From an uncultured virus (IMG/VR IMGVR_UViG_3300025326_000019) (Duplodnaviria; Heunggongvirae; Uroviricota; Caudoviricetes), in the IMG/VR virus record IMGVR_UViG_3300025326_000019: a stretch of DNA of 64,000 nt. The stretch is one strand, 5' to 3'. Made by a program: the position numbers and the translations under genes. Below, one piece after another: positions 19,965 to 39,928 of the stretch. A model generated the notes under the pieces. It did not search any database, had not been told where the DNA came from, and saw only the letters and a list, made by a program, of their open reading frames with translations. The stretch's first letter is position 1, and every line of letters begins with the position of its first letter.

Positions 19965-20137
19965 AGGAGACACCCCGGATGGTGGAGATTGCTGCGCGGG
20001 TTGTCCGTGCCCTTGACGCGGTGCGGGATAAGTTACCAGATCGCGATGATATTGTGAAAGAATTCCACCGTCGTTCTATGGAGGACATTGTGTACTTGCT
20101 CGGTAAGCTCGGTGTTGTCGTGCGACCTAAGACATGA
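19961..20137 (+). CDS. 58-aa hypothetical protein (not in the ORF track)
   Basis: MKETPRMVEIAARV...VRPKT*; ATGA overlaps at both ends; flanked by a 14-bp direct repeat. Confidence 0.6.
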   Translation: MKETPRMVEIAARVVRALDAVRDKLPDRDDIVKEFHRRSMEDIVYLLGKLGVVVRPKT

Positions 20138-20784
20138 AGGAGACCATTTCGGTTGTGATTCCGTGTCGGACGACGGACGTTCCGAGAGAGACGATAGAAT
20201 CCCTGTTTGCGCAGACCTATAAGCACCTCGAGTTTATTATCGTGGTGGACGCTGAGCAGCGTGGGCAAAGCTGGGCGCGAAATCAGGGGATTCAACGGTC
20301 GTCTTATTCCCTTGATGAGATCGAAGCCAGCCGACTGATACTCTTTAGTGACTATGATTGTCGCTGGGAACCTGACGCCGTAGAGTGCCTCTACGATACG
20401 CTGTGCACCGCACAGACAAAGCCACGTGATACCGATGATTGGGTAATAGGATATTCGTTCCCTAGCTACGTACAGTTATTGGACGGTGTGCCTGTGAAAA
20501 CCTTTGGCCTCGAGCCGTGGAGTTGGCCACGCCTGACCTTTGGGAATTACATCACCATGATGAGTCTAGTGGATATTGATGTTTTGAAAGGTATCTTACA
20601 TTTCGACGAGCGCCTTCGGCGATTGGAAGACTGGGATTTGTGGCTTCGGTGTGGACAGCACGGCATTGCTGGAGTGGGCACGGGCAGGATTCTATTTACC
20701 ACGGACGTCAAGCCTGGGGTGAGTTACGGTGATCTGTCTCATGCGGAAGCGGAGATACAGGTGAGGAAACTGAGGGGGCTATGA
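20134..20784 (+). CDS. glycosyltransferase family 2
   Basis: ISVVIP, ARNQGI, FSDYD, FDERLRRLEDWDLWLR. Confidence 0.9.
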   Translation: MKETISVVIPCRTTDVPRETIESLFAQTYKHLEFIIVVDAEQRGQSWARNQGIQRSSYSLDEIEASRLILFSDYDCRWEPDAVECLYDTLCTAQTKPRDTDDWVIGYSFPSYVQLLDGVPVKTFGLEPWSWPRLTFGNYITMMSLVDIDVLKGILHFDERLRRLEDWDLWLRCGQHGIAGVGTGRILFTTDVKPGVSYGDLSHAEAEIQVRKLRGL

Positions 20785-21722
20785 AGAATCTCGGCCCAGG
20801 TGATGTCGTACTTGTGACTGGTGGTAGCGGGTCACTTGCCAGGGCTCTGATTCCACAGATTCTTACTGCTGGTGTAGATGAATTACGTATCTTGTCTCGC
20901 GATGAAGTCAAGCAGGGGGAAATCCACACGCTGTATCCAAATGTCAGGTGTATCTTGGGAGATGTCCGCGATCTCCGGGCGTGTAAAGAAGCCGTGCGCG
21001 GGGCCACGATTGTCTTGCATGCGGCCAGTCTCAAATTTATTGACGTCTCGGAACTCCAGCCGACAGAGTATGTCCTCACGAATGTCCTCGGCACGATTAA
21101 TATGATCCAAGCAGTCACGCAAGAGGGCGGCGTGGATAGAATGATCGGAATCAGTACTGATAAAGTGGCCAATGCTATTAATACATACGGATTGACTAAG
21201 GCGCTCCTTGAGAAGCTCTTCATGGAATCTCATACGCATCGTAAAAGAACAGGAACGACCTTCGTTGTCTGCCGCTATGGGAATGTCATCGCATCGCGTG
21301 GTTCGGTTCTGCTCAAGTGGGCGGAGGCACGGAAGACCGATGCTCCGTTACTCGTGACGGATCCTACTATGACACGCTTCTTCTTCACGTTGGACGAGGC
21401 CGTCGATCTGATAGATCTGGCGCTGGTGCAGGAATCTGGGGTAATCGTCTCCAAGGCGATGTCCTCGACCACGCTAGGGGAGTTAGCGGAGGTGATGGCT
21501 GGGCCAGCCGGGGTGCGTATCATCGGGCGTCGTCCAGGAGAAAAGGTTCATGAGGATCTGTTGTCGGAACTGGAAATGCCGCGCGTGATACGGCAAGAAG
21601 GATTCTTCTTCTACCGACCCTTGTCAACACCACATGAGACGACGGAACCTGCGTATACGTCCTTCACCGCTCGCCGATTGACGCCGGATGAACTGATGGA
21701 GTTGACGGAGCCATGGCGGTGA
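20781..21722 (+). CDS. UDP-sugar 4,6-dehydratase (PseB/FlaA1/CapD-like SDR)
   Basis: VTGGSGSL, SRDEVKQ, GDVRD, HAASLK, STDK, YGLTK (YxxxK), RYGNV..SRGSV, MTRFF, RPGEK.HE. Confidence 0.92.
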   Translation: MKNLGPGDVVLVTGGSGSLARALIPQILTAGVDELRILSRDEVKQGEIHTLYPNVRCILGDVRDLRACKEAVRGATIVLHAASLKFIDVSELQPTEYVLTNVLGTINMIQAVTQEGGVDRMIGISTDKVANAINTYGLTKALLEKLFMESHTHRKRTGTTFVVCRYGNVIASRGSVLLKWAEARKTDAPLLVTDPTMTRFFFTLDEAVDLIDLALVQESGVIVSKAMSSTTLGELAEVMAGPAGVRIIGRRPGEKVHEDLLSELEMPRVIRQEGFFFYRPLSTPHETTEPAYTSFTARRLTPDELMELTEPWR

Positions 21723-22792
21723 CAGTCGGCATCTCTATCGTTTCGATGAATCGACCGCAGATCCTCCGTCAAACGATCTCGCGCCTGACCTGCAATCCAC
21801 AGATCCCGCAGGATCGGATCGTGATCGTCGACAACGGGTCGACGGACCCTGAGACGCTGGCGCTGTTAGAGACGCAAGCGCGTGAGGGCTGGCACATCGT
21901 GCGCAATGCGACGAACTTGGGTCTCTCGCGTGCGGTCAATCAGGGCTTGGCTGAGTTCGCGGCTGATTCGGATTTACTCCTCCATATGGACGATGATGCC
22001 CTCGTGCATCCTGCGGAGACGGACGATTGGTTGGCGCGCATGGTGGATACTATGGTCAACTGTCCGGAGCTCGGGCTCCTCTTGCCGAATACGGAGAACT
22101 ATACAGAGTTTATTCAGCACGATCGGTATCGGGAACTGCGGTGGGGGCTCGGGATGATGTGGGTGCTTCGACGAGATGTGTACACCATTGTAGGGGGCTA
22201 CGATCAGCAACTCCTACATCAAAATGAATGTGATCTCGCCTTACGTGTGCGCATGGCGGGATATACAGTGGGGGCAATGAACGTTAAGGTCATGCATAAC
22301 GATCCTGGTGGTCCACGATCTGATCTATCATTAGCGCGAGAGCATTTAGGCACAGTGCAGTTCAATGATAAGCATTGTGGGTACTTTCGCGGACGAGCGT
22401 GGTCATACGGCACAGTTCCAGTATACAGAATGCAACAGTGGCCGCCGGATCAGGAATGGTACCGAAGATTCTCGAAAGCTAATGCCATCGAATTGAATCC
22501 TGCGCCACCAGAGTATCGAGTAGAAAATGTGCAACCTGGTGAGCGTGTCATTGAAATTATTGAGGTGAGCGAGCAAGGGAAGATCGAAGGTAAGGCCCTG
22601 GCGCGCCGTATTTTCATTGCGGGGGCGTGGTATTTCTGTATCGTTGGGCTTACAAACGAATACGCGCACTGGGCACGTGGGACTGGATACCTCGATGACC
22701 GGGATCGTGCGATCGCCAAGTGGTTCGAGTTGACTGGTGAGAAGTACGAAGGGTACAAGTGGCCGTGTAATCTGCTTAAGCCGGCTGAATAA
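21713..22792 (+). CDS. glycosyltransferase family 2
   Basis: IVIVDNGSTD, NLGLSRAVNQG, HMDDD, VGGYD. Confidence 0.9.
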   Translation: MAVTVGISIVSMNRPQILRQTISRLTCNPQIPQDRIVIVDNGSTDPETLALLETQAREGWHIVRNATNLGLSRAVNQGLAEFAADSDLLLHMDDDALVHPAETDDWLARMVDTMVNCPELGLLLPNTENYTEFIQHDRYRELRWGLGMMWVLRRDVYTIVGGYDQQLLHQNECDLALRVRMAGYTVGAMNVKVMHNDPGGPRSDLSLAREHLGTVQFNDKHCGYFRGRAWSYGTVPVYRMQQWPPDQEWYRRFSKANAIELNPAPPEYRVENVQPGERVIEIIEVSEQGKIEGKALARRIFIAGAWYFCIVGLTNEYAHWARGTGYLDDRDRAIAKWFELTGEKYEGYKWPCNLLKPAE

Positions 22793-23467
22793 ATGCGCTT
22801 AGGCTCGCATCATACCGAAGATTCTAAGGCTAAAATTGTAGCCGCTAATATTGGACGAGTTCCCAGTGCAGAAACACGCATGAAGATGTCGGCTGCTCAC
22901 GCTGGGCAATGTCAGTTTAAGACTATTACTACTTGTGATCTTGAATGGACTGCTGGGTTTTTAGAGGGAGAAGGCACATTCGATTTTTCTAACGGTAGCC
23001 AAAATGTAGGAAAACTGGCTATAGCATGCGAGTAGGTGCGGTACAGGTACAGGCATGGCCCTTGTACAAACTAAAAGATATGTTTGGAGGCAGTATATCT
23101 TTTTATCCCTCTAAAACCGACGGCGGCAGGTTTATCTATGACGCTTTATTCACTTTTATCTCCTCAGCGCCGGGATCAGGTTTTGAAGAAGTTGACTCTC
23201 TGGAAATTGCGGCCTATGTCACATAAATTCCAAACGCATTGTTTCAATGGGCATTTATTATCTGGTGAAAATGTATCTGTGTATACGGGTATCAAGGGCA
23301 AGAGACGGACTTGCTTAACGTGTCAGAGAAAGTACCGCAAGGATAGGCAGTCAGATATGAATCGCCCAATTTGTAAAATGTCAGAATGCGGAATTCCGGT
23401 GTTCGTTAAAGATGTGTGTAAAAAACATTATCAGCGCTATAGGCGTTCGTTGGGAAAAAGGGCCTAG
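22793..23467 (+). pseudogene. degenerate NUMOD3-LAGLIDADG homing endonuclease split over three reading segments
   Basis: WTAGFLEGEG in 22793..23035; VGAVQ..PLYKLKDMFGG in a second frame; MTLYSLLSPQRRDQ and THCFNGH after a further shift. Confidence 0.75.
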
Positions 23468-23471
23468 AAGA

Positions 23472-24611
23472 ATGCACATTGTTGTTGATGGTAATGTGTA
23501 CGAGCCAAATTCTTTCTGCGTTGTCAACCGCAATATTGTTTGCGCCATGCATCGTCTAGGCTATGACGTGCGCCTCGAGGCATGGGGACAGGGACGCGAG
23601 AAACCTCACCGCGAGTCGTTCATTGACCGCGATCTTCTGGACGAGCTTGCAGCGAAGCCAAAAGACTACGACAACGCGATCACGATCCGCCAAAGCTGGC
23701 CACGGTGCGAGCCGTACTACAGCCCTGCCTACAACTGGGATACCATCCAAGGGAAAATCAAAATAGGGCTCCTCCCATGGGAAAGCGAACATCTCCCGGC
23801 GACATGGCTGGACAATATACGGACGGTCGACGTCATCCTGACCATTTCCACGTTCTCTGCTGACCGTATAGAGCGGGAACTGTGCCGAGCGTCCGTTCCC
23901 ACGCCAGTGTGGGGCGTCCCGTTAGGGGTGGATCGCCGGCTGTTCAATCCAGACCGCCCTCCGAGAGCCCTCGAAGGCGCCAGGGCCTTCCGATTCCTCC
24001 ACATAGGCGTCGGGCAGCCCCGGAAGGGGTCGGATCTCGTGCGCCAAGCCTACCTGAACGAGTTCACGGACGCCGACGACGTGACTCTGGTGGTCAAGAC
24101 AGGAGGATGGGATGACGCGTCCGCGTGGACGGAGCATCTCGAGGCCAATGCCCCGCACATCCTGGTCGTGCATGATGATAATATCCCGGAAGCGGAGATG
24201 GGCGGGTTCTACACGGCCTGCCATTGCCTGGTCCATCCGGCGCGCCTAGAAGGGTTTGGTATGACGATGTTGGAAGCGATGTCGTGCGGGATCCCGGTGA
24301 TCTGTACGGAGCAGGGTGCGCACCGGGTCTTTGCCAACGCATCCAACTCGATATTGGTCCCGTGCGTGGAGGAACAGTTCGCGTACTTTCAGGACCTCGT
24401 GGGCATAGCCCATCGCGTGGATCGCGAGGCCTTGCGCCGTGCCATGCGGACGGCGATGCTGGATGCCTCGTGGCCTATGGTCACGCGAACGAATGTACAT
24501 TTACTGCTTCCTGGTCTCATAACAGCGCAAACGTTCTCATGGGCACGCACGGCGGTACAGATCGTAGACCACATAGAACGGATGTTCGGGCCGCTGGATA
24601 AAATATCATGA
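23472..24611 (+). CDS. glycosyltransferase family 4 (GT-B)
   Basis: PLGVD, PRKGSD, HPARLEGFGMTMLEAMSCG (EX7E). Confidence 0.92.
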   Translation: MHIVVDGNVYEPNSFCVVNRNIVCAMHRLGYDVRLEAWGQGREKPHRESFIDRDLLDELAAKPKDYDNAITIRQSWPRCEPYYSPAYNWDTIQGKIKIGLLPWESEHLPATWLDNIRTVDVILTISTFSADRIERELCRASVPTPVWGVPLGVDRRLFNPDRPPRALEGARAFRFLHIGVGQPRKGSDLVRQAYLNEFTDADDVTLVVKTGGWDDASAWTEHLEANAPHILVVHDDNIPEAEMGGFYTACHCLVHPARLEGFGMTMLEAMSCGIPVICTEQGAHRVFANASNSILVPCVEEQFAYFQDLVGIAHRVDREALRRAMRTAMLDASWPMVTRTNVHLLLPGLITAQTFSWARTAVQIVDHIERMFGPLDKIS

Positions 24612-25315
24612 CAGATTCCGAAGCGATTCAACGATTCCGTGCGCTGTATAGCGGTGGTCTGGCACAAAAGCGCCGTGATGCCGGAGACCCGAGTGCCCTA
24701 GCACCATGGCAATCCACGTCGTGGATGGGGAAACCTGTGTCGAAGTGTCCCATGGATCTGTGGGTGTATCAGGAATTGCTGTATGAGACTCAGCCGGATG
24801 TGTTACTTGAATGTGGGACGAGTGGAGCAGGGTCGGCGTTCTTCTTTGCCTCGATCTTCGATTTCATCGGAAAGGGCCACGTGGTCACGGTCGACGTCGA
24901 TGTGTATCTCCATCTCCGGCGAGAGCATCCGAGGATTACGTATCTAGTCGGCGATTGTCTCAGTGAGGAGATTATGTCTGTAATGCGAGAGTGCGCACGG
25001 GGGAAGGCGACCATGGTCTCGCTGGATTCTACGCATACCTACGTGCACGTGAAACAAGAACTGGCGGTCTATGCACCACTGGTGACGCCGGGGCAGTATT
25101 GTGTTGTCGAGGATATCGGGATATTTGACGAAGCGTCCGCCGAGCGCGGACCGCAGTTCACGCCAGCGATTCTTGCGGATCTCGACATCGGTGATCCGTA
25201 CTGGGGGACGCTGGCGGTGGCAGAGTTTTGTCGCGAGCATCCTGAATTCGTGCAGGATGTGACGCGGGAGCGGCATCTCATGACGTCATTCGCGTGGCTT
25301 CGGAGGGATCGGTAA
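24608..25315 (+). CDS. CmcI (cephalosporin hydroxylase)-family / rhamnosyl O-methyltransferase-like protein
   Basis: WMG.P..KCPMDLWVYQE, PDVLLECGT..AGS, LDSTH, GQYCVVED. Confidence 0.88.
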   Translation: MTDSEAIQRFRALYSGGLAQKRRDAGDPSALAPWQSTSWMGKPVSKCPMDLWVYQELLYETQPDVLLECGTSGAGSAFFFASIFDFIGKGHVVTVDVDVYLHLRREHPRITYLVGDCLSEEIMSVMRECARGKATMVSLDSTHTYVHVKQELAVYAPLVTPGQYCVVEDIGIFDEASAERGPQFTPAILADLDIGDPYWGTLAVAEFCREHPEFVQDVTRERHLMTSFAWLRRDR

Positions 25316-26004
25316 TGAGCTATGGTCGTGCACCGACGGTGGATTTAGCTGTCACCGTGAACTTGACCGAAGAGAACGTGATCGACGCATTCCACGGCGT
25401 CTATTACTCCAGGCTCGACACGCTGCGATGGTTCGGGGTGCCCGTGCTCAAATCCCCTATTGATATGTGGATCTATCAGGAGATTCTGTGCCGAACACTG
25501 CCGGATGTGATCATTGAAACCGGCACGGCTTTCGGTGGCTCGGCGTATTTTATGGCAGCAGTTTGTCAGTTGATCGGGAAGGGACGCATTCTTTCTATTG
25601 ACATTGATCCGACCACAGCGAATCTGATGGTGACCAGTCGACCCGTCCATCCCCGCGTGACGTATCTCACGGGCAGTTCAACGGACTCGGCGATACTTCG
25701 GCAGGTCAGAGAGCAGATCCAACCCAGCGAACGTGTGATGGTAATTCTGGATTCGGATCATCATGAGCCGCATGTGAGTGCGGAACTTGAAGCCTACGCT
25801 GGCTTGGTCTCGCCAGACTGCTACCTTATCGTGGAGGACACGAACCTGAACGGCCATCCCGTGGGGTCGGAGTTTGGGCCTGGTCCGTGGGAAGCTGTGG
25901 ACAAATGGCTGCCGGAGCATCCGGAGTTTGTGCTCGACTCGGTCCTCGAGCAGCGCTACGTCGTCACGTTTAACCCGCGTGGGTATTTTCGGAGACTGGC
26001 ATGA
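25315..26004 (+). CDS. second CmcI-family O-methyltransferase-like protein
   Basis: KSPIDMWIYQE, IIETGTAFGGSA, ILDSDH, YLIVEDT, GPGPWEAV, TFNPRGY. Confidence 0.9.
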   Translation: MSYGRAPTVDLAVTVNLTEENVIDAFHGVYYSRLDTLRWFGVPVLKSPIDMWIYQEILCRTLPDVIIETGTAFGGSAYFMAAVCQLIGKGRILSIDIDPTTANLMVTSRPVHPRVTYLTGSSTDSAILRQVREQIQPSERVMVILDSDHHEPHVSAELEAYAGLVSPDCYLIVEDTNLNGHPVGSEFGPGPWEAVDKWLPEHPEFVLDSVLEQRYVVTFNPRGYFRRLA

Positions 26005-26885
26005 TTGATTCGGCGGTGCGAGATCGGACGGCGTGCATGATGAGAGTGAGGAACGAAGAAAGATGGCTAAAAAGGTCACTTGAGCGGACTTACCAGGTGG
26101 CAAAGACCGTTGTGCTGTTTGACGACGGATCTGAAGACAGAACTATACGTGAGGCGCTTGAGACCGTCCTGCCGAGTACGGATGTCATTGATCGCCTGCT
26201 GGCTGCGCCAGATCCCATTGCTGTGGCGTACAACGATCGGTGCTTGTATGTAATCCGTTCTCCGTTTCGGTACAATGTAGTGCGGCCACGAGAGTCAGTC
26301 AATGAAATCGTGGATAAGGTGATACTCTGGCGGTTTGTTAAAGCGACCGTGGATTTTGACTACATACTCTGTCTTGATGGCGATGAAATTCTTACGCTGG
26401 CAGCCATTCGTAATTGGTCGTCGGCTATCGAACAGATGCGCTCGGGCATTGACATCTTGCACATTCCGTTCCTTTACGCTTGGGATGCAGAAGATCGACG
26501 TCGCGTGGACGGTATTTACGGGGACATCCCTGGTAGTTCGTTCGCGAAGTTGAATTTCCCGAGGCTCTTTACCATTCTTCGACTGAACGAACATTCTTTG
26601 TACAATTCTACCTTCCAGTGGCATGGCACACAATGGAGTCTTCACGGAGGCAGTGTGCCTCGCCAGAACTTTCGACCTCTCGGGGCTGAGCCGACGTCTG
26701 GGAATGCCCACCTTCCTGTTTTACACCTTGGATACGTGTCTGAAGAACTCCGGCAACGAAAGTTCATTTTTTATAATGCTCAGGATCCGGCCAACGACGC
26801 GGAAGGGCGGTACGAACATATTGTAGGAAGAAGTGATATTCATGCCCCTGGACCATTGGAATTTGTATCCTGGAGCGATACATGA
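26001..26885 (+). CDS. glycosyltransferase family 2-like
   Basis: VRNEERWL, FDDGSEDRT, CLDGDE, LHLGY. Confidence 0.85.
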   Translation: MIDSAVRDRTACMMRVRNEERWLKRSLERTYQVAKTVVLFDDGSEDRTIREALETVLPSTDVIDRLLAAPDPIAVAYNDRCLYVIRSPFRYNVVRPRESVNEIVDKVILWRFVKATVDFDYILCLDGDEILTLAAIRNWSSAIEQMRSGIDILHIPFLYAWDAEDRRRVDGIYGDIPGSSFAKLNFPRLFTILRLNEHSLYNSTFQWHGTQWSLHGGSVPRQNFRPLGAEPTSGNAHLPVLHLGYVSEELRQRKFIFYNAQDPANDAEGRYEHIVGRSDIHAPGPLEFVSWSDT

Positions 26886-33153: not shown

Positions 33154-33162
33154 TGTGGCGAA

Positions 33163-33351: not shown

Positions 33352-33401
33352 CTAATACTCCGGCCTTGCGCCGGTTGACATTCCACCAAGCGAGCGAGCC
33401 T

Positions 33402-33436: not shown

Positions 33437-33469
33437 GCTGTGCACGTTCGAACGCGGGAGGGACGATAG

Positions 33470-33769
33470 ATGGCAAATCAGTTGATCTGGATCATCATCG
33501 TTCTGGCGGTCCTTGCCGGCTTTGCATGGTTCGCAAAATGGATCATCGAGGGATTCTTCCCAGAGCCCATGCGGACGCCTGCCCTCATCCTCGTCGGCGT
33601 TGTTCTGTTGATCTTCCTCATTATCGCGGCCTCACAACTTCTCGGTGGCGGCTCAACGATTGGGCCATTCAAATTCGGCCGCGCTGCAGTTATCGAAGAA
33701 CCATCAGGGCACACACACCTCACCGCGTGCTGCATCAAGCCGCATCGGCGTGATATGGCGGCGATCTAG
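33470..33769 (+). CDS. small membrane protein with 2 TM helices (holin-like possible)
   Basis: Two long hydrophobic stretches; GGGAGG RBS. Confidence 0.65.
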   Translation: MANQLIWIIIVLAVLAGFAWFAKWIIEGFFPEPMRTPALILVGVVLLIFLIIAASQLLGGGSTIGPFKFGRAAVIEEPSGHTHLTACCIKPHRRDMAAI

Positions 33770-33777
33770 ATGTTCTC

Positions 33778-35679
33778 TTGCAGTGTGAATCAGTTATGGA
33801 GAGCGGTCGCATGGTGAAATATCACACGGCGACGATGAGCCACGAGCAGATCCGTTCGACGGTTCAACGTGCACTCGATACAAAGTATCCGGGACCGATG
33901 CCAGAACCCATGGATTACGCTTCCATGCCGTGGGCCATGGAGGTTTACGACGGTCACGTGATCCATTCCGGTGGTCCAGGGAAAGGTCTGTATAAGCAGA
34001 AATATAAACTCGGCAAAAACGGCGAATGTGAATTGCTAGGTGAACCGGAAGAGGTCGAGCCTGGCTATGTTACCAAGGTGGGGATGCAGTTAGCAGCGGC
34101 AAAAGTTACAACCGGGGACGAAGCGGACGCCCAGGCGCTAATGGCCGAGTTGTGCGAAAAAAATCCGCTCATGGCGTCCATCAAGGATTCTCCGAACACC
34201 CATCTGGTCATTTTCGATCTAACGTCCATCGGCAAGCCGAGCAATCACGAGGGTGAGTTCCATTATCAATTGGCGAAGGCCGGGTTGAAGGCGGCACTGC
34301 CCACGCTGATCAGCAAGCCTATTCACGTGACGGAGGGTTTCGACGGGCACTTTACGGCTGGGAAGGACCCCGTGGCGATTGGCGTGTTTCTGGGCGGCGT
34401 GGTCATTGACCAAGCCGATGGGTCTCAGATTCTTCGCGCAGTTGGCACGCTCTGGGACAATGATTTCCCGGATATCGTCAACGAGATCAAAGAGAAGCGT
34501 GCGGATCTCGGTGCCAGTTATGAAATCGCCTACCTCGCTGCCAGCGCGTCCCGCTTAGGAGGCAAGGTGATCGAGATCGGGCAATACGAGTTCTCCGGTG
34601 GGGCGCTTCTCTACAAATCTGCAGCGGCACATCACGAGACGCAATTGCTGATGGCGGATAAGGATGTTAGTCAGGCTTTCGATGTGCTGGACGACGAGCA
34701 GTACCCGCGGCTCCTTGCGTATCTCCGCGGTGGCACCAGCTTTACGCAGGCCGACACGTTGTCCTACAAGGCCCGTGAGAATCTGTCGGACAAGGATTTT
34801 GCGCTAATCCAGCACGTCGATGGCCGTACGATTCGGCGGTTTCCGTTGCAGGACGAAGCACATCGCAAGAATGCATGGGCGCGATTGTCTCAGGCGAAGA
34901 ACCTCTCCGACGCGGAACGCTCGGAGGTGGCAAACAAGATCATCTCGCGTGCGAAGGCAGCTGGGGATGACTGGGCAAAGCCGTACACGAAGTCCGGTGG
35001 TGACTGGACGAAGGGCACTCAGACCAAAGGAGGAGCATCCATGAAGTACAAGGGCATTCCGGAAGAGCTGGAGGCGGCGGTCGAGGCCCTGCTCAAGGAC
35101 GCCACGGCCACAGTGACAGCGGAGTTCACCGACAAGATCGCAGCGCTCGAGGCCAAGCAGGCTAAGGCATTGGCGGCGATGGACGGTGAAGACGACAAGG
35201 ACATGGAAAAGATGATGAAGAAGAAGATGGCGGAGACGACAGCCGAACTTGAGCGGATCAAGCCGTTCGAGGCCAAGGTCACGGAATTGACGGCTGCGCT
35301 GGACGTCACCAAGGACCAGTTGACAACTGAACTCAGCAAGACGACAGAGGAACTTGCGACCGCACGGGCGGAACTCGACAAGCTCGCTGGTGAGCAGAAG
35401 TTGGCTGCCACGATTGCCGCGCTCAAGGCCGACTATGGCTTGACCGACGAGCAGCTGAAGGAAGAAAAGCGTGCGGTCATCGTCGCCAAGCAGGCTGCCG
35501 GCAAGGAGCCGCTCACGATCGAGGAGTGGAAGCAGTTGATGACCGGCGCGCAAGTCCCTGGCGTTGCCGGAACCCGTGTGCCGTTGTTCGCGGGCGGTGG
35601 AGACCCGGGCCAGCAGGCGCCGGATTTGAAGGCGATTTCGAAGAATTTCCCCAACGCGACCAAAAAGGTGTTCAGGTAA
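33778..35679 (+). CDS. prohead protease/scaffold fusion (exact start uncertain)
   Basis: Protease-like core (GASYEI, FSGGALL), a DUF6582-like segment (LSDKDFA...RFPLQD..H..NAWARL) and a coiled-coil C-terminus; upstream of the decoration and capsid genes. Confidence 0.75.
   Translation: MQCESVMESGRMVKYHTATMSHEQIRSTVQRALDTKYPGPMPEPMDYASMPWAMEVYDGHVIHSGGPGKGLYKQKYKLGKNGECELLGEPEEVEPGYVTKVGMQLAAAKVTTGDEADAQALMAELCEKNPLMASIKDSPNTHLVIFDLTSIGKPSNHEGEFHYQLAKAGLKAALPTLISKPIHVTEGFDGHFTAGKDPVAIGVFLGGVVIDQADGSQILRAVGTLWDNDFPDIVNEIKEKRADLGASYEIAYLAASASRLGGKVIEIGQYEFSGGALLYKSAAAHHETQLLMADKDVSQAFDVLDDEQYPRLLAYLRGGTSFTQADTLSYKARENLSDKDFALIQHVDGRTIRRFPLQDEAHRKNAWARLSQAKNLSDAERSEVANKIISRAKAAGDDWAKPYTKSGGDWTKGTQTKGGASMKYKGIPEELEAAVEALLKDATATVTAEFTDKIAALEAKQAKALAAMDGEDDKDMEKMMKKKMAETTAELERIKPFEAKVTELTAALDVTKDQLTTELSKTTEELATARAELDKLAGEQKLAATIAALKADYGLTDEQLKEEKRAVIVAKQAAGKEPLTIEEWKQLMTGAQVPGVAGTRVPLFAGGGDPGQQAPDLKAISKNFPNATKKVFR
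35041..35679 (+). CDS. nested in-frame scaffold protein (212 aa, internal start)
   Basis: AAAGGAGG RBS 7 nt before an in-frame ATG at the start of the coiled coil. Confidence 0.65.
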   Translation: MKYKGIPEELEAAVEALLKDATATVTAEFTDKIAALEAKQAKALAAMDGEDDKDMEKMMKKKMAETTAELERIKPFEAKVTELTAALDVTKDQLTTELSKTTEELATARAELDKLAGEQKLAATIAALKADYGLTDEQLKEEKRAVIVAKQAAGKEPLTIEEWKQLMTGAQVPGVAGTRVPLFAGGGDPGQQAPDLKAISKNFPNATKKVFR

Positions 35680-35708
35680 TCCCACGCACACAGGAGGAGT
35701 GATGAATC

Positions 35709-36137
35709 ATGGCGAAGAAAATCGCAGCCTATAACACAAACTCCGTTATCGGGGCGCCGATCAAGGCGGCCGCGGCATCGACCATTCTTCAGGGAGTCTT
35801 CGTTGGGCTGGATGGGTCCGGCCTAATCCTCCCGGCGGATATGCGGTCCTCGGCCGGTCCGGTGCAGGCTCGGGGTGCGGCGCTACAAGATGCGCAGATG
35901 AAGGATCCGAAGGGTAACGTGTTGGATACGATCGTGCAGGGTTCCTACACATTCGAAGGCAAAATCGCGGGGTTGTCCGGTCTCACGTCCGGCGCAACCT
36001 ATTACCTGCTCTCTGGTGGTGCCATTCAATCAACGGCTCCTGCATCGGCGACGGGCGATATCGACCAGGAAGTCGGCTACGCACTCGACGACACAACCTT
36101 GGTCATCATGATCGGACCAGCTGTCATCCACGCCTAA
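35709..36137 (+). CDS. capsid decoration/cement protein
   Basis: 142 aa between scaffold and capsid genes; GLTSGATYYL...Q.VGYA. Confidence 0.75.
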   Translation: MAKKIAAYNTNSVIGAPIKAAAASTILQGVFVGLDGSGLILPADMRSSAGPVQARGAALQDAQMKDPKGNVLDTIVQGSYTFEGKIAGLSGLTSGATYYLLSGGAIQSTAPASATGDIDQEVGYALDDTTLVIMIGPAVIHA

Positions 36138-36169
36138 TGGCGTTGGCTGAGAAAGGGAGGAACTGAGCA

Positions 36170-37189
36170 ATGCCAAAAGGATATGTCACATCTGACATGA
36201 TCGACCTCAATGAGCTGTGGTATGCAGGCGGTGGTATCGCCGCTGCCGTCGATCAGTATCAAGCGGTCGAGATGCCGCTACTAAACGCACTCGCATTGCC
36301 GTGGCCGGAAAACATCATGAAGTACGGCATCAGCGAACGGAACGGATTCCAGGTCCTCGGGCCTGGGGAACGGCCAGACCGCAAGTACGTCGTAGAAGCG
36401 ACGATGTACCCCGTCGTGACGAAGTATGGCTACGGCGTGGGGACGGATCTCGATACCCTGCAACGCTCCAGCGCGCGGCAGATCATGCTCGCCATGAACC
36501 GGCCGATGCTGGAGGATCCTGAGCACATCCTGACGCGCATTCTCAAACTTCTAATGACGAACCCAGGTACCAGTAATGCTGGGTACGGATTCTGGAACGG
36601 GCAGTACGCGGCAGAGGAAATTATCACGCATCCGCCGGCCTATCAACAGCAGACGTTTGCGGCTGGCCACAACCACTTCTTGGTGTCGCTCACGGCCAGC
36701 ACACTCGTGCTCAAAGACATCACCGCGATGAAGCAGACAATCCGGCATCACGGGGCCAAGGGCACACTGCTTGGTTTCATCAATTCCGATACCGCGATGG
36801 CGATCGAGAACCTTGCGCTCTTTACCGTCGGCAGCACGGCGCTGGTGCGTTCGCCTGTATCGGATACCGTTGCGGTCGACGGCTTCGGGGAAAGCTTCAG
36901 GCTGCTCGGTGTCGACTGGTACGTCACGGAACTCGTGCCGGCCAACTACGTCCTCATGGTCGAAGGCAATTCTGCCGAGACTGAGCGGCCGTTGATCATG
37001 TACGAGCCCGCCGCGATGCGGGGGCTCAGGCTGCATCCAGGGCCGATGAACGACTATCCGCTCATCGAGTCCTTCTGGGATCGGTGGTTTGGATTCAAGG
37101 TCGCCAGGCGCGGTTCCGGTGCTGCGCTCTGGTTTGGTGCGCACGTCGGGACGTATACGTCGCCGACATTCTCGTTCACGGCGTCGTAA
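36170..37189 (+). CDS. major capsid protein
   Basis: 339 aa; position after scaffold and decoration genes; strong RBS; downstream hairpin. Confidence 0.8.
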   Translation: MPKGYVTSDMIDLNELWYAGGGIAAAVDQYQAVEMPLLNALALPWPENIMKYGISERNGFQVLGPGERPDRKYVVEATMYPVVTKYGYGVGTDLDTLQRSSARQIMLAMNRPMLEDPEHILTRILKLLMTNPGTSNAGYGFWNGQYAAEEIITHPPAYQQQTFAAGHNHFLVSLTASTLVLKDITAMKQTIRHHGAKGTLLGFINSDTAMAIENLALFTVGSTALVRSPVSDTVAVDGFGESFRLLGVDWYVTELVPANYVLMVEGNSAETERPLIMYEPAAMRGLRLHPGPMNDYPLIESFWDRWFGFKVARRGSGAALWFGAHVGTYTSPTFSFTAS

Positions 37190-37204
37190 GGACTGACAAC
37201 GGAT

Positions 37205-37231
37205 GCCCCGGCGTGAGTAATCCGCCGGGGC
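37205..37231 (+). terminator. GC hairpin after the capsid gene (terminator or mRNA stabiliser; no U tract)
   Basis: GCCCCGGCG / CGCCGGGGC perfect 9-bp stem. Confidence 0.55.
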
Positions 37232-37265
37232 CGTAAGATCAATCAAGCAATGAGAGGAGTGTGCG

Positions 37266-37616
37266 ATGAGAACACATCAGAGGGAGAGGGTGAAGGAGCA
37301 TCTGATCGATCCGCGTCAATGGCGTGTCATCGGTCAATTGCGGCACCATGACGTGACGTACGGCACGGCAGAACCGCTGCCGGATATCACGGTGACTGAA
37401 GCGGCGCTGTACGAAAAGCAAGGCACATTGATGCGGGTGAGCGATACGGCACTCGCAGAATCATATCTTGAAGGGCCTGATGTGGCGGTGCTGCAGACTG
37501 TGCTCGACAAGAAACCGGATGAACGAGTGCTGAATCAGATGCTTACACTGGCGCAAAGGAATTCGCGATCCAAGGTGCTTGAATTGGCGCTGACCATTGC
37601 CAGGGGGAGTGCATAG
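37266..37616 (+). CDS. hypothetical protein
   Basis: GAGGAG RBS. Confidence 0.6.
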   Translation: MRTHQRERVKEHLIDPRQWRVIGQLRHHDVTYGTAEPLPDITVTEAALYEKQGTLMRVSDTALAESYLEGPDVAVLQTVLDKKPDERVLNQMLTLAQRNSRSKVLELALTIARGSA

Positions 37617-39928
37617 TGCCACGTGTGCTGATCGTCAGCGATAGCCCGGCGGTGAGTTCTGGCATGGGCCGCGTGGTGCGTGAACTCGCGCCGCGATTCA
37701 CGGCCGACGGATTTTCGGTCGGGGTCGCTGGGTGGTTTGACCTTGACGCTCCTGCCATGGACTTCGATTATCCAGTTTTCCCAATTCAGAAGCACGAACC
37801 GGCGAGCCTGCAACCGTATCTCGAGCACTTTGCGCCGGATCTCGTGGTGGCGATCGGGGATCCGTGGGACTGGGCGTGGCTTGTCAATCATCGGTTGCAG
37901 ACCGGCGGATACAAGCTCGTCGGCTACCTAAATGTCGAAAGTGCTCCATTGCCCATGCTGTGTGAACGTATTCTCGACGGTTTCGATGCCGTGTGTACCT
38001 CTAGCCAGTACGGTGCCCGTGCGATCGGCCGGCCTGGCGTGACTGCGATTCATTACGGCGTCGATACGGAGACGTTCTTTCCCATGCCGCCACCGTCCAA
38101 GGTGTTGTTTGGGAAGCCATTGGATCAGACATTCACGGTGCTGATCAACGGGCAAAATACATTTCGAAAGAACTTGGGCGCATCCATGGCGGGATTCCTG
38201 CAGTTCGCTCGCGGGAAGCCGGATGTCCTGGCGTACTTCAATACCGTCGCTAGGCCAGGTCCGAACGATGCACCCGGGACGGACCTCGTGGATCTGTCTA
38301 TTCAGCTCGAGGCTGAGAAACTCGTTTGGTTCAATCCAGACAACCATGGACCGATCAAGACCATTGACGATACGGCCTTGAACGGACTCTATGGGATTGC
38401 CTCCGTTCTGCTCTCAACTTCTGTCGGCGAAGGATTCGGGCTTCCGGTCCTCGAGGCGATGGCCTGTGGCGTTGTTCCGGTAGTTCCGCAAGATTTCAGT
38501 ATGCCGGAAATCATCGGAACGGAACCGGGTCAGTACATCCAACACGCCCGCGGTATTGGGATCCCGGTGCATGCGTACATTCCGACGCTCCAGGGTCAGC
38601 GGGTGCCGGTGGTCGCTGACGCGGACATTGCGGATGCGCTCCAAGCTGCCTACGACGCATGGCGTCATATGCGCGCAATGTCCAATCTCGATGGGGATAC
38701 GACCAGCTTCGGCGTGATGCGCACAAACGGTCTTGAATTCGCGCGGAGCAAGACCTGGGATCGGACGTATACGCAATTCGTTACTGTGTGCCTAGACTCC
38801 TTGCGGACGCCGCGGTCGCGGATGGCGGTGGGCCGACCCATCGAGCCAGCTATCCGACTCTTTGGACGCCGGACAGCCAAACGGCATCCGGAGGCTTTTG
38901 GCGTGCTCAAGATGGGCGGGTTGGGTGACATGCTGCAGGCCACGGCCGTTATCCGGGCTGCGGCGCTCAAGTCAGGACGCAAGGCCGTAGTTTTCTGCAA
39001 CGCCCATGCGGACGTGTTTCTGGCCATGCCAGAGGTGGTTGAAACTGTGCAACTCGCTCCCATGCCCCAGCAAATGGCAGCAGACAGCCTAGCAGACGAG
39101 TTTCCGCTCTTCCTGGACGTCCGGTACGTCTCGAGGGCCTACGGCCTCTGGAAGCCCACGGCGTTCTTTGAGAAGCATCAGTGGTTTTATGACCACTGGA
39201 CGCCGTCCTCAAATCGCCTGGCGACCCTTGGGATGCACAGTACGCAAATCATGCTGGATAGTTTGGGGCTCGAGGGGCCGATTTGGCCGGTCTATGAACC
39301 TCGGGCTGAGCCGTCGCTGGATCGCGCTGCGTGGCCAGTCGAGCCCTACGTGGTCTTGGCGACCGGTGTCGGTGCTATGGGAGGGCTCAAGCGCTGGCCG
39401 GCGGAGCGCTGGACCGCGCTCGCCAGTGCTCTTCACCTGGACGGACTTCACCTTGTGCATGTCGGCGGCACTGGGGATGACGCGGTGGATGGCATTGACT
39501 TTGATTACCGTGGTGCAAGCCTACCTGAGACCGCGTGGATCCTTGAGCATGCGCAAGCGCTAATTGCCGTGGAAGGTGGGATTGCACACTTGGCCGCTGC
39601 GGTCATGCGGCCTTTTTGGGGACCGGATGGGCAGAAGGTGCCCAACGGACAATTCATTGGAGTGATCTTCGGGCCAACGCCCACTAGGCCTTTTCTCTAT
39701 CCAGGCCACACCGCTCTCGTACTCCCAGAATTCTGTACCCCATGCTGGCAGGTCGAACCGAATTGGAAGCACGCCAAATGCTCAATCGGAGCACCGAGTT
39801 GTGTGAACTTCCCGTCGGTGGCGGATGTCCTCTCTACGGTAACGCTGTATCTGCCGCGTGTGACCCGAACATCCTTTTCTTCTCCCAGTACGGCGCATGC
39901 CCTGCATATGGAAATGATACCGAAATGA
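37616..39928 (+). CDS. GT4 + GT9 (heptosyltransferase-like) fusion glycosyltransferase
   Basis: N half: SGMGRV, RKNL, GEGFGLPVLEAMACG; C half: GGLGDML, KRWPAERW, SLPETAWIL, VEGGIAHLAAA, IFGPT, CTPCW. Confidence 0.9.
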   Translation: MPRVLIVSDSPAVSSGMGRVVRELAPRFTADGFSVGVAGWFDLDAPAMDFDYPVFPIQKHEPASLQPYLEHFAPDLVVAIGDPWDWAWLVNHRLQTGGYKLVGYLNVESAPLPMLCERILDGFDAVCTSSQYGARAIGRPGVTAIHYGVDTETFFPMPPPSKVLFGKPLDQTFTVLINGQNTFRKNLGASMAGFLQFARGKPDVLAYFNTVARPGPNDAPGTDLVDLSIQLEAEKLVWFNPDNHGPIKTIDDTALNGLYGIASVLLSTSVGEGFGLPVLEAMACGVVPVVPQDFSMPEIIGTEPGQYIQHARGIGIPVHAYIPTLQGQRVPVVADADIADALQAAYDAWRHMRAMSNLDGDTTSFGVMRTNGLEFARSKTWDRTYTQFVTVCLDSLRTPRSRMAVGRPIEPAIRLFGRRTAKRHPEAFGVLKMGGLGDMLQATAVIRAAALKSGRKAVVFCNAHADVFLAMPEVVETVQLAPMPQQMAADSLADEFPLFLDVRYVSRAYGLWKPTAFFEKHQWFYDHWTPSSNRLATLGMHSTQIMLDSLGLEGPIWPVYEPRAEPSLDRAAWPVEPYVVLATGVGAMGGLKRWPAERWTALASALHLDGLHLVHVGGTGDDAVDGIDFDYRGASLPETAWILEHAQALIAVEGGIAHLAAAVMRPFWGPDGQKVPNGQFIGVIFGPTPTRPFLYPGHTALVLPEFCTPCWQVEPNWKHAKCSIGAPSCVNFPSVADVLSTVTLYLPRVTRTSFSSPSTAHALHMEMIPK

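Follow-up and report, generated by a model that had tools for sequence, protein, structure and literature searches.

A putative virion-glycosylation island embedded in the head module of an uncultured tailed virus

We analyzed a stretch of 64,000 nt (hereafter, the window) from an uncultured member of the Caudoviricetes, a phage of the long-tailed kind, assigning families with Pfam and NCBIfam profiles as well as PHROG profiles to the 64 window ORFs scanned. The window carries an enzyme island bounded by a portal-like gene (18156-19964) and by head-assembly and capsid genes (33778-37189). The portal-to-head-assembly interval encodes seven glycosyltransferase (GT) genes, one dehydratase, two CmcI-type methyltransferases and one small class I methyltransferase; with a two-domain GT beyond the capsid gene and an outlying methyltransferase-GT pair, the enzymes in or beside the head module total 14 genes, all on one strand. 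A previous sequence-only reading had arrived at nine GT genes (ten domains), four methyltransferases and one dehydratase, and our analysis gave the same totals. The features are as follows.

2065-2787, plus strand: class I methyltransferase (Methyltransf_11, 23.1 bits, cut-off 21.2)
2784-3701, plus: divergent GT-A-like protein (no Pfam match of its own; assigned via homologues)
15378-18134, plus: large terminase with intein (phrog_2, E 6e-17)
18156-19964, plus: portal-like protein, directly after the terminase (ESM Atlas look-alikes)
20134-20784, plus: GT2, 216 aa (PF00535, E 5e-8, 33.5 bits, cut-off 23.3)
20781-21722, plus: PseB/FlaA1/CapE-type UDP-HexNAc 4,6-dehydratase (PF02719 Polysacc_synt_2, E 1e-65)
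21713-22792, plus: GT2, 359 aa (PF00535, E 4e-15, 56.5 bits; phrog_2456)
22793-23035 and 23084-23467, plus: two homing-endonuclease ORFs, NUMOD3 (PF07460, E 5e-7) and HNH (phrog_1492 HNH, E 3e-9)
23412-24611, plus: GT4, 399 aa (PF13692, E 2e-14; PF00534, E 5e-14; phrog_2170, E 6e-29)
24608-25315, plus: CmcI/rhamnosyl O-methyltransferase type (PF04989, E 5e-42; NF045824, 83.9 bits, cut-off of 400 not reached)
25294-26004, plus: second CmcI/rhamnosyl O-methyltransferase type (PF04989, E 3e-64; NF045824, 159 bits, cut-off of 400 not reached)
26001-26885, plus: probable GT2-like protein, kept in relatives (PF00535, 17.6 bits, under cut-off)
26882-27406, plus: HNH-AP2 homing endonuclease (phrog_99, E 2e-33; HNH_3 and AP2 matches)
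27403-28137, plus: GT-A (GT2-like), kept in relatives (Glyco_transf_7C, 19.4 bits, under cut-off; phrog_29879 "galactosyl transferase", E 9e-6)
28608-29093, plus: small class I SAM methyltransferase, 161 aa (phrog_6636 "methyltransferase", E 5e-9; Methyltransf_11, 18.8 bits, under cut-off)
29701-30336, plus: LAGLIDADG homing endonuclease (PF00961, E 3e-6; phrog_5046, E 2e-21)
30336-31013, plus: GT2, 225 aa, kept in relatives (PF00535, E 2e-13, 51.2 bits; phrog_29879, E 4e-16)
31684-32838, plus: GT4, 384 aa, kept in relatives (PF00534, E 1e-6; phrog_2170, E 8e-20)
32866-33111, plus: small HTH_17 DNA-binding protein at the island end (PF12728, E 8e-11)
33778-35679, plus: conserved head-assembly protein (ESM Atlas YonD_N-type clusters, 0.94; DUF6582)
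35709-36137, plus: conserved 142-aa protein directly 5' of the capsid gene (homologues in 13 of 16 relative loci)
36170-37189, plus: major capsid protein (phrog_3990, E 8e-34)
37266-37616, plus: conserved 116-aa protein, encoded after the capsid gene and before the fusion (homologues here in 10 of 16 loci)
37616-39928, plus: two-domain GT, N-terminal GT4 and C-terminal GT9-like (PF00534 and PF01075)

The earlier count of five GT2 and two GT4 genes in the interval holds, with the gene at 26001 a probable GT2-like glycosyltransferase to judge from its NEE, DDGSTD and DGDE motifs, which are typical of GT2 enzymes; when it was aligned with its sister GT2 at 21713 (hhalign), the DDGSTD stretch alone aligned (probability 10.8%). 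The family profile of 27403 (3 sequences) aligned with the GT2 at 30336 at a probability of 96.8% (hhalign, E 3e-10). The second methyltransferase-GT pair, previously given as 2152-3701, was recovered at 2065-3701, with its GT member recognized through homologues (8 of 36 aligned homologues match PF00535, and some homologues are fused to methyltransferases); 387 library representatives match this protein at E<=1e-3, and a 64.5% identical fragment is present at the end of relative record G002. The dehydratase scores 212 bits against TIGR03589 (PseB), under the equivalog cut-off of 407.75, has the H. pylori UDP-GlcNAc C6 dehydratase 2gn4 as its closest solved relative (E 2e-53; CapE 3vvb, E 2e-52) and retains the STDK...YG.TK stretch, while the small methyltransferase at 28608 has an LNLGCG motif at its N-terminus. 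The O-methylated deoxy-sugar suggested in the sequence-only reading is a prediction from the dehydratase and the two CmcI-type enzymes. No downstream sugar-nucleotide enzyme, and none processing the 4-keto sugar further, was found among the window ORFs.

The terminase, which marks the start of the head module, is split by an intein that carries a LAGLIDADG endonuclease (LAGLIDADG_3, Intein_splicing, Hint_2), and its homologue in relatives is ~464-533 aa long, without the intein insert. The label "portal" for the next gene draws on its place behind the terminase and on look-alikes in the ESM Atlas (features 0.96-0.98; structure rows of the Portal_Mu type, TM 0.54-0.58), but not on Pfam, PHROG, PDB or phage-record searches, none of which gave a match; the protein is 55-57% identical to its homologue in relative loci L003, L004 and L007, where the HTH_17 protein also has a 56% identical homologue in the same place. 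The gene at 33778, previously called a protease, a label that is tentative, is YonD_N/DUF6582-like; it had no match in PDB or phage records and, in Pfam, matched DUF6582 alone (19.4 bits). Its C-terminal part looks coiled-coil in the sequence, and 11 of the 16 relative loci have a homologue upstream of their capsid gene. The 142-aa protein that follows is possibly a decoration or cement protein, given a weak Phage_cement_2 match of its L003 homologue (E 0.0065). The capsid protein is 25-27% identical to cluster D/H mycobacteriophage capsid genes and ends in a Y-x-x-P-T/S-F/L motif found family-wide (C-termini of 24 family members), and the 116-aa protein after it matched no Pfam or PHROG family.

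The enzymes lie within the late structural operon and are co-oriented with the head genes, as had been claimed, every long ORF in the window being on the plus strand. Start/stop overlaps are continuous across 20781-28137, homing-endonuclease genes included, which agrees with the translational coupling proposed before. GC content over the window is 49-64%. Four homing-endonuclease genes (22793, 23084, 26882 and 29701), absent from the sequence-only reading, break up the island. The one at 26882, an HNH-AP2 gene, is an insertion between GT genes that adjoin each other in relatives, their L007 homologues overlapping directly (3174-3962 and 3959-4693).

The GT4-GT9 fusion reported earlier after the capsid gene was confirmed there, with a single small gene in between. 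Its AF2 model (pLDDT 89.9, pTM 0.87) matched 3oy2 with the N-domain (Z 33.3) and 3tov, 1psw and TibC 4rap with the C-domain (Z 21.6, 21.0 and 20.7, respectively). Across 33 sequences, E272, E280, the GGLGD stretch, K592, C707, C710, C722 and C729 are invariant, and the first cysteine pair (CPPCW) aligns with GCYGCW of TibC, a protein-directed heptosyltransferase in whose iron finger these cysteines are Cys339 and Cys342 (PMC4358343). The top solved match of the GT4 domain is chlorovirus NY-2A B736L (profile E 5e-12; Foldseek E 7e-17), at a fold score (Z 33.3) tied with bacterial GT4s. According to the available part of PMC9614988, chloroviruses make methylated-rhamnose capsid glycans with their own enzymes, the acceptor of B736L itself being unknown there. 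We consider this conserved capsid-adjacent fusion, with its four invariant cysteines and the alignment of the first pair with the TibC iron finger, the most original part of the system.

Comparison with 16 relative loci, whose capsid proteins are 57-59% identical, showed that the island is not a one-off and that versions of it stay in the head operon of relatives. The fusion lies 3' of the capsid gene in all eight loci that reach far enough, and homologues of 26001, 27403, 30336, 21713 and 31684 flank the capsid gene, on one side or the other, in L003/L004/L007, L013 and L016, with identities of 39-45% for 26001 (L007 and L013), 36-38% for 30336 (L003, L007 and L016) and 36-46% for 31684 (L003, L007, L010, L013 and L016). 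In contrast, no homologue of the dehydratase, of either CmcI gene, of the GT2 at 20134 or of the methyltransferase at 28608 turned up in any of the 16 loci, and therefore the most distinctive chemistry lies outside the conserved core. Just 5' of its terminase, record G002 (GC 67%) encodes a fusion of a methyltransferase with a Maf_flag10 domain (PF01973, E 6e-16), the core of flagellin O-glycosyltransferases.

All 14 enzymes are soluble, without a membrane segment: none reached a 19-residue hydropathy maximum of at least 1.6. Wzx/Wzy, GtrA and polyprenyl-phosphate GT families, as well as C5-methylase, TET/JBP and thymidylate-synthase-like families, were not found among the 64 ORFs scanned, in agreement with the earlier statement that the window holds no flippase, polymerase, GtrA/B or DNA-modification partner. 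PADLOC matched 0 of 17 island proteins.

The solubility of the enzymes, a head-operon slot kept in relatives and the precedent of mycobacteriophage Corndog (below) make glycosylation of virion proteins the best reading. Judged by genomic context, we favor with moderate confidence a cytoplasmic glycosylation system that the phage encodes and expresses together with its head genes, the most likely outcome being a particle coated with a methylated sugar chain. The acceptor, sugars and order of steps that we infer are as follows. Soluble GT-A and GT-B enzymes would draw on host nucleotide sugars, with the PseB/CapE-type dehydratase supplying an additional 4-keto-6-deoxy-HexNAc derivative, and would assemble an O-linked oligosaccharide on exposed stretches of the structural proteins; its sugars would be O-methylated by the CmcI-type and class I methyltransferases. 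The leading candidate acceptor is the conserved C-terminal Y-x-x-P-T-F tail of the capsid protein; other possible acceptors are the tail tube and the 142-aa protein encoded before the capsid gene. Found clade-wide beside the capsid gene, the fusion is the best candidate core (priming or first-extension) enzyme, and the portal-to-head-assembly genes may represent a variable elaboration set invaded by homing endonucleases.

Alternatively, the enzymes might remodel the host cell envelope by altering a surface glycan or glycolipid (e.g., a methylated deoxy-sugar glycolipid or wall polysaccharide), thereby blocking superinfection, masking receptors or aiding release. The nearest curated families are indeed those of enzymes of the cell envelope, namely EpsD/EpsE, rhamnosyl O-methyltransferase, the MSMEG_0565 family, LPS heptosyltransferases and CapE; 30336 weakly matches a GtrB-like PHROG (E 5e-5), source names of fusion homologues read "involved in cell wall biosynthesis", and the GT9-like domain scores better with the LPS heptosyltransferase WaaC (E 2e-6) than with TibC (2e-4), fold scores being tied. 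Further, G002 carries an integrase, which makes lysogenic conversion conceivable on lifestyle grounds, although a pattern scan of 185,579 species genomes found no homologue of the fusion or capsid and, therefore, no prophage context is known. We consider envelope remodelling unlikely, given the lack of membrane segments, of a flippase, polymerase or GtrA in the window, and of a separately oriented moron near an integrase, the genes instead overlapping inside a late head operon, in a slot retained across relatives of very different GC content.

Slightly less probable still is another cytoplasmic acceptor or a mixed island, in which some enzymes would modify host proteins, a soluble methylated oligo- or polysaccharide or a small molecule, and at most the capsid-adjacent fusion would act on the virion. 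Fold matches close to the top scores include the mycobacterial methylmannose-polysaccharide mannosyltransferase 7qsg and the small-molecule GTs BshA and MshA; the variable part (dehydratase, CmcI genes, 20134 and 23412) is missing from all 16 relative loci, unlike the constant fusion; and homing endonucleases cut the island into pieces. However, the genes form a single, tightly coupled operon with the head genes, virion glycans in Corndog need just soluble GTs and a methyltransferase, and we know of no report of a free methylated polysaccharide made by a phage.

Hypermodification of DNA, with the GTs adding sugars to modified bases of the phage's DNA as a defence against restriction, is very improbable because, besides the families missing from the window, G001 and the relative G002 (83% complete), searched in six frames, gave no match to C5-DNA-methylase or thymidylate-synthase-like proteins (the TET/JBP search carries no weight, as its control gave no signal), and because, to our knowledge, known DNA-glycosylation pathways include neither sugar O-methyltransferases of the CmcI type nor a UDP-HexNAc dehydratase and are not known to have nearly as many as ten GT domains; on its side are the match of 23412 to the Pfam "GT4-conflict" family (E 6e-11), a fold match to T4 alpha-glucosyltransferase (Z 22.5, far under the top) and, in the available part of bioRxiv 10.1101/2023.12.21.572611, phage GT-A/GT-B enzymes akin to LPS and teichoic-acid enzymes that glycosylate 5hmC DNA, in gene neighbourhoods that can also adjoin structural genes.

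Virion glycosylation, which we favor, has its closest parallel in Corndog, where a methyltransferase and three GTs occupy the same portal-to-capsid slot as the island (portal gp34, methyltransferase gp35, GTs gp36-38, gp39, gp40, capsid gp41). As far as the available parts of the sources go, these enzymes modify the Corndog capsid and tail tube (PMC11600133), and it is the C-terminal ends of the capsid and tail tube subunits that bear the glycans (PMC12619734). Kinship of the enzymes is weak for Corndog (21713 vs. gp37, 30% identity over 106 aa, E 7e-8; no BLASTP match of gp35, gp36 or gp38 to window proteins) and absent for Che8 (gp108-110, no BLASTP match at E<=0.01 to any of the 64 window proteins); thus, the analogy stands on position, not kinship, and the virion-glycosylation proposal of the sequence-only reading is retained on solubility, operon position and slot conservation rather than on relatedness to these systems. 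Cyanophage S-CBS4 shows a comparable order (portal, GT, GT, methyltransferase, HNH, ..., protease, capsid). By gene counts, the system is more elaborate than the mycobacteriophage cases, as had been suggested, with 14 enzyme genes vs. one methyltransferase and three GTs in Corndog and three genes in Che8. The island would represent a much larger version of the virion glycosylation demonstrated to date in just a few mycobacteriophages.

The long open reading frames of the window all lie on the + strand, and among the head genes stands a run of glycosyltransferase (GT), dehydratase and methyltransferase genes, here called the island, which we think probably serves the cytoplasmic glycosylation and O-methylation of virion proteins. 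A two-domain GT4+GT9 glycosyltransferase gene, the fusion, stands one small gene after the capsid gene. Genes are named by their start coordinate.

Features of the window and, in the last two lines, of the relative record G002 (its locus L028)
1434-2168, 10007-10693, 22793-23467, 26882-27406, 29701-30336, 41808-42926, 46593-47672: free-standing homing-endonuclease regions
15378-18134, + strand: large terminase, 918 aa, with an intein that bears a LAGLIDADG endonuclease (Hint_2, Intein_splicing and LAGLIDADG_3 matches)
18156-19964, + strand: portal-like gene, by position and ESM Atlas look-alikes
20134-32838, + strand: enzyme island
28608 (start), + strand: class I methyltransferase, 161 aa
32866-33111, + strand: small HTH_17 (excisionase/MerR-like) gene at the island end; homologue, 56%, in the relative loci L003, L004 and L007
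33778-35679, + strand: conserved 633-aa head-assembly gene
35709-36137, + strand: 142-aa gene between the head-assembly and capsid genes
36170-37189, + strand: major capsid gene (phrog_3990, E 8e-34)
between capsid gene and fusion, + strand: 116-aa gene
37616-39928, + strand: GT4+GT9 fusion
47926-48741, + strand: tail tube gene, 46-57% identical to relatives
50054-57961, + strand: 2635-aa tape measure, last of the tail genes after the fusion
L028:16956-18320, - strand: Maf_flag10/MptE-like (PF01973) + class I methyltransferase fusion
L028:13798-15884: FkbM and Methyltransf_24 methyltransferases

The sequence-only reading had counted nine GT genes (ten domains), four methyltransferases and one dehydratase, and this inventory is borne out by Pfam, NCBIfam and PHROGs, with uneven support for 26001. 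Three genes exceed the PF00535 (GT2) gathering cut-off of 23.3 bits, namely 20134 (33.5 bits), 21713 (56.5) and 30336 (51.2), while 26001 remains sub-threshold at 17.6 bits with its NEE, DDGSTD and DGDE motifs present. Gene 27403 has no PF00535 match; comparing profiles with hhalign links it to 30336 (probability 96.8%, E 3e-10), and the genes 27403, 30336 and 21713 are all matched by phrog_29879 ('galactosyl transferase'). Against the PDB, the family profiles of 26001 and 27403 gave weak matches only (GmaR, E 0.023; beta-4-galactosyltransferase 7, E 0.11). The GT4 families PF00534 and PF13692 are above cut-off in 23412 (52.6 and 54.4 bits) and 31684 (28.6 and 27.4 bits). The outlying GT gene at 2784-3701 has no Pfam match of its own; its family comprises 387 library representatives, with PF00535 in 8 of 36 aligned members and some members fused to methyltransferases.

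The dehydratase (20781-21722) belongs to Polysacc_synt_2 (PF02719, 222 bits); its nearest relatives are FlaA1/PseB of H. pylori (2gn4, E 2e-53) and CapE of S. aureus (E 2e-52), with the STDK...YG.TK stretch of 2gn4 kept, which we take to be the catalytic D-K...Y...K residues. Since it scores below the equivalog cut-offs for both PseB (TIGR03589, 212.4 vs. 407.75 bits) and FnlA (188.5 vs. 730), its exact product cannot be named. A PseB/FlaA1-type dehydratase is the first enzyme of the pseudaminic-acid pathway, and CapE/FnlA-type 6-deoxy-HexNAc routes would, judging from sequence, suit the enzyme equally well; the families Maf_flag10, PseC, PseH, PseG, PseI and PseF are all absent from the 64 window ORFs. 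The two CmcI/rhamnosyl-O-methyltransferase-type genes, 24608 and 25294, clear the PF04989 cut-off of 23.2 bits (144.5 and 216.8) and miss the NF045824 equivalog cut-off of 400 (83.9 and 159), so that membership of the CmcI-type family holds and substrate identity does not.

All 14 enzymes, the outlying pair at 2065-3701 included, have 19-residue hydropathy means below 1.6. It had been claimed from the sequence that the window lacks a flippase, a polymerase, GtrA/B-type membrane proteins and DNA-modification partners, and the Pfam search of the 64 ORFs agrees: it returned no family for a GtrA flippase, a GtrB with TM helices, Wzx/Wzy or a polymerase, and none for C5-methylases, TET/JBP or thymidylate synthase. 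Modification of the host envelope we regard as an unlikely function of the island. There is one weak GtrB-like PHROG match, to the soluble catalytic part of 30336, and neither a Gtr-type nor a Wzx-Wzy serotype-conversion arrangement is found in the window. Ranking below the envelope in our estimate, and improbable too, is another cytoplasmic acceptor or a mixture of acceptors. PADLOC matched 0 of 17 island proteins. Finally, glycosylation of DNA, in which GTs act on 5hmC or 5hmU, is highly improbable, as no C5-methylase with 5mYOX/TET, nor a hydroxymethylase, lies beside the GTs in the window, and neither PF00303 nor PF00145 matches G002 or G001, a record searched alongside; that last negative covers these two families, the PF12851 search being left out with its control silent everywhere.

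Both halves of the fusion are recognizable by sequence and by fold. The N-domain scores 35.8 bits for Pfam GT4 and has a GT-B fold (Z 33), and the C-domain scores 31.6 bits for PF01075 (GT9) vs. a cut-off of 22. Homologues fall into 32 non-self clusters, all full-length (697-760 aa, 29-77% identical), of which 24 carry PF01075. In 33 aligned sequences E272 and E280, presumably the E-x7-E motif of GT4, are invariant, as are G437-D438 of a GGLGD stretch, K592, and four cysteines (C707, C710, C722 and C729). In the AlphaFold model (pLDDT 89.9, pTM 0.87) the best solved match of the N-domain is chlorovirus NY-2A B736L (3oy2; profile E 5e-12, Foldseek E 7e-17, Z 33.3), its fold score being tied with those of bacterial GT4 enzymes, e.g., BshA, PimA and PglA. 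The C-domain has the GT9 fold, with tied scores for 3tov (Z 21.6), WaaF (1psw, Z 21.0) and TibC (Z 20.7; Foldseek E 2e-7), and a domain-only model (pLDDT 65.2, and 30-40 in the cysteine region) left the order of matches unchanged. We also tried to tell TibC-type from LPS-type GT9 enzymes by fold, and both Foldseek (domain-only model) and VIA-align (full model) returned ties.

The bacterial autotransporter heptosyltransferases TibC and AAH (4rap, 4rb4) are cytoplasmic protein O-glycosyltransferases that have the GT9-like GT-B fold in common with the C-domain. By sequence profile WaaC (E 2e-6) is a better match than TibC (E 2e-4); the TibC alignment alone extends into the cysteine region, where the CPPCW of the fusion lies over the GCYGCW of TibC, which includes the iron-finger residues Cys339 and Cys342 (PMC4358343). 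The four cysteines near the C-terminus of the fusion may form a finger of this sort: the first CxxCW aligns, and the spacing of the last two differs (C-x2-C-x11-C-x6-C in the fusion vs. Cys339, 342, 358 and 370 in TibC). The TibC type is marked by an N-terminal beta-barrel, a dodecameric ring and an autotransporter substrate; no such barrel is seen in the fusion, which has its GT4 domain in that place. We read the cysteine alignment as a hint, rather than a demonstration, that the C-domain may be of the protein-directed kind.

Fusion and capsid gene are passed on together, and the other genes of the kit change from one relative to the next. For the capsid protein there are 57 clusters of homologues, every one of them metagenomic, and scans recovered 16 non-self loci, 8 of which end too early to show the fusion. 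In all eight loci that reach far enough (L003, L004, L007, L008, L010, L011, L013 and L016) the fusion follows the capsid gene and a small gene; since L003/L004/L007 and L010/L011/L016 are near-identical groups, these represent about four independent lineages besides the window. The slot between portal and head-assembly genes in L003/L007 holds homologues of 26001, 27403, 30336/21713 and 31684 together with a Methyltransf_24 enzyme, and in L013 and L016 the 31684 homologue is placed after the fusion, with a further GT2 in L013. The synteny for which the sequence-only reading had asked is kept in part: the fusion and several GT genes are retained, and none of the 16 loci contains a homologue of the dehydratase, of either CmcI gene, of 20134 or of 28608. 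Dehydratase homologues do occur on metagenome contigs (47-91% identical, about 310-330 aa), and two of them, P0285 and P0290 (48-50% identical, 327-332 aa), have a precomputed Phage_portal (PF04860) assignment on the same predicted protein, a lead which suggests that other phages also place a dehydratase gene beside the portal. The relative record G002 (107,417 bases, 83% complete, 67% GC) has an FkbM methyltransferase, a Methyltransf_24 protein and a Maf_flag10 (PF01973)-methyltransferase fusion just upstream of its terminase, none with a homologue in the window, and also encodes an integrase, Dam, a RuvB-like protein and a ligase. Neither the capsid alignment nor that of the fusion gave a hit when 185,579 species genomes were scanned for their patterns.

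Four homing-endonuclease genes, to which the sequence-only reading does not refer, lie inside the island (22793, 23084, 26882 and 29701), and HNH, NUMOD3, HNH-AP2, LAGLIDADG and GIY-YIG types are all represented in the structural region. The HNH-AP2 gene is an insertion, given that the two GT genes flanking it in the window overlap each other directly in L007. Reading frames within 28256-28611 contain zinc-ribbon-like remnants (CxxC...CSxxC) similar to the N-terminal part of the 29701 endonuclease. Just after the LAGLIDADG gene, a 16-codon stretch (47708-47755) corresponds to residues 1-16 of the tail tubes in L013 and L016 (81% and 63%) and is perhaps a second copy of the gene start that the insertion of an endonuclease left behind. 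The terminase homologue of relatives is about 464-533 aa long, without the intein insert.

The stretch 20134-39928 is 100% identical to a 45,640-base IMG/VR record that CheckV rates 35% complete. The capsid gene is also present in a 128,929-base metagenome record, from which the phage genome is probably about 130 kb and the window about half of it. No match was obtained when the head genes were compared by blastn with 50,697 phage records, and the capsid protein is 25-27% identical to the capsids in 33 records from actinophages (30 Mycobacterium, 2 Arthrobacter, 1 Nocardia). For the names of two head genes the outcome was mixed. The label 'portal' is supported by position and ESM Atlas look-alikes and by no PDB or phage-record match; the 'protease' label of the 633-aa gene finds no support, as this protein, likewise with no solved or phage-record relative, resembles YonD_N/DUF6582 proteins. 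Neither showed significant BLASTP similarity to the portal, head-morphogenesis or scaffold proteins of Hawkeye. Directly before the 633-aa gene, a 99-aa ORF (33470-33769) contains a strongly hydrophobic helix (hydropathy 2.90); it has neither a family match nor homologues among the relatives and is perhaps not a real gene. Searches of the window found no tRNA genes, Rfam families or group I intron, and in 19900-39890 there were 10 promoter-like sites vs. 13.3 expected and 24 terminator-like sites vs. 14.3 expected, most of the latter being weak and most lying on the minus strand. Upstream of the terminase, the GC content of 4000-10000 is 63-64% vs. 49-58% elsewhere, and its Laminin_G_3, fn3/SBBP-repeat and large unannotated proteins look like fiber or surface proteins, possibly separately acquired.

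As candidate acceptors we considered structural proteins with conserved C-termini. The capsid family ends in a motif, [ST]-Y-x-x-P-[TS]-[FL], with P332 invariant in 24 sequences, and the tail tube ends in ...SGTGVYPT...PDKLR, likewise in relatives; the two tails resemble each other only loosely. A longer overlapping ORF (47784-48719), which masks the real gene, is not the tail tube. Rejected as an acceptor was the S/T/P-rich tail of 48853-49749, the tail assembly chaperone: a T TTT TTA slippery heptamer (49623-49629) lies in frame, and the -1 frame is open over 49590-50051, just before the tape measure, in the classic G/G-T arrangement. The FLPSGES stretch coincides with the slippery site, and FLPSG is kept in three relatives, so that this tail is conserved on account of the -1 frameshift site. 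Complex prediction of the fusion with capsid residues 250-339 scored 0.00, the partner's own fold being uncertain, and counts neither for nor against the pairing.

These observations can be combined into a bolder proposal, which we offer tentatively and consider on the unlikely side: the fusion would be a new family of viral protein O-glycosyltransferases that primes the capsid tail, the island its tailoring kit, and the product a glycan coat found clade-wide. The TibC-like cysteine-finger domain would prime the Y-x-x-P-T-F tail of the capsid, the sugar being perhaps heptose or another one supplied by the host, and elongation would fall to the GT4 domain, while the portal-side kit would be fast-evolving, shuffled by endonucleases, and in this phage would add O-methylated 6-deoxy-HexNAc-type sugars. 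If so, virions throughout a clade of uncultured phages from soil and groundwater, with genomes of 75-130 kb, would bear lineage-specific glycan coats. Of the new elements, the fusion with its putative cysteine finger, taken together with the capsid C-terminal motif, lends itself best to testing, as a candidate enzyme-substrate pair in vitro.

According to statements in PMC11600133, phage virion glycosylation has been demonstrated only in a few mycobacteriophages, where it weakens the neutralizing-antibody response. The present locus, with ten GT domains, four methyltransferases and its own sugar-nucleotide dehydratase, is among the largest gene sets of this kind that the present analysis could document, and it places the portal-to-capsid slot in use in an unrelated, uncultured phage clade. 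Coats of glycan may be widespread among phage particles in nature; if they are, this would matter for phage-host recognition, for how stable particles are in soil and water, and for phage therapy and display.

Among the systems to which the island can be compared, chloroviruses (PBCV-1 A064R, A061L) are described in PMC9614988 as building a capsid glycan with O-methylated rhamnose by viral cytoplasmic GTs and methyltransferases. The GT4 domain of the fusion finds its best solved match in B736L; these are eukaryotic giant viruses with N-linked glycans, and B736L itself has no assigned acceptor. The Maf flagellin nonulosonic-acid glycosyltransferases, in which PF01973 is the core of flagellin O-glycosyltransferases, have their counterpart in G002 and not in the window. 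From Che8, the example chosen by the sequence-only reading, the use of phage-encoded soluble GTs carries over, and gene position and sequence kinship do not. PMC12363180 contains the statement that the soluble GTs gp108-gp110 of Che8 (cluster F) are required for capsid glycosylation, and attributes to Freeman et al. 2023 that Che8, Corndog and Myrna have glycosylated proteins. The three Che8 genes are at the right genome end, distant from the structural genes, whereas the island lies within the head module, and they gave 0 BLASTP matches (E<=0.01) in the 64 window proteins.

Closer in layout are the cyanosiphovirus S-CBS4 and Tetrasphaera phage TJE1, both known from annotation alone. In the gp13-gp16 region of S-CBS4 the portal is followed by a hypothetical gene, a GT group 1 gene, a galactosyl transferase, a SAM methyltransferase and an HNH gene, and further on by a regulator, protease and capsid, with a 'transcriptional repressor' before the protease at the place analogous to the HTH_17 gene of the window; in TJE1 (orf9-orf14) there are in addition nucleotidyl transferase, epimerase and methyltransferase genes. 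S-CBS4 gp14 and TJE1 orf14 are 28-30% identical to the N-domain of the fusion, and S-CBS4 gp15 is 29% identical to 30336, but both phages have far fewer such genes and no GT9-like domain, and their portal and protease have no detectable relation to those of the window. We know of no experiments on either S-CBS4 gp13-gp16 or TJE1 orf9-orf14.

The nearest working parallel is the mycobacteriophage Corndog (cluster O). PMC11600133 attributes to Freeman et al. 2023 that the capsid and tail tube are modified by its gp35-38 enzymes, and PMC12619734 attributes to the same study that glycans are located on the subunits of capsid and tail tube, at their C-termini. The Corndog map runs from portal gp34 through O-methyltransferase gp35, GTs gp36-38, gp39 and gp40 to capsid gp41, and thus shares with the window the portal-to-capsid slot, co-orientation, and soluble GT-A types accompanied by a methyltransferase. 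Sequence kinship is slight: gp37 and 21713 share 30% identity across 106 aa (E 7e-8), which indicates superfamily-level GT-A kinship only, gp35, gp36 and gp38 have no BLASTP match in the window, and the capsid and portal are unrelated to the window's at BLAST level. By analogy, the island would resemble the Corndog cassette in its working rather than as a sequence member, and is a much larger variant (14 genes vs. 4), to which are added GT-B enzymes, a dehydratase of its own, CmcI-type methyltransferases and a clade-wide, capsid-linked GT4+GT9 fusion, all of which Corndog lacks.
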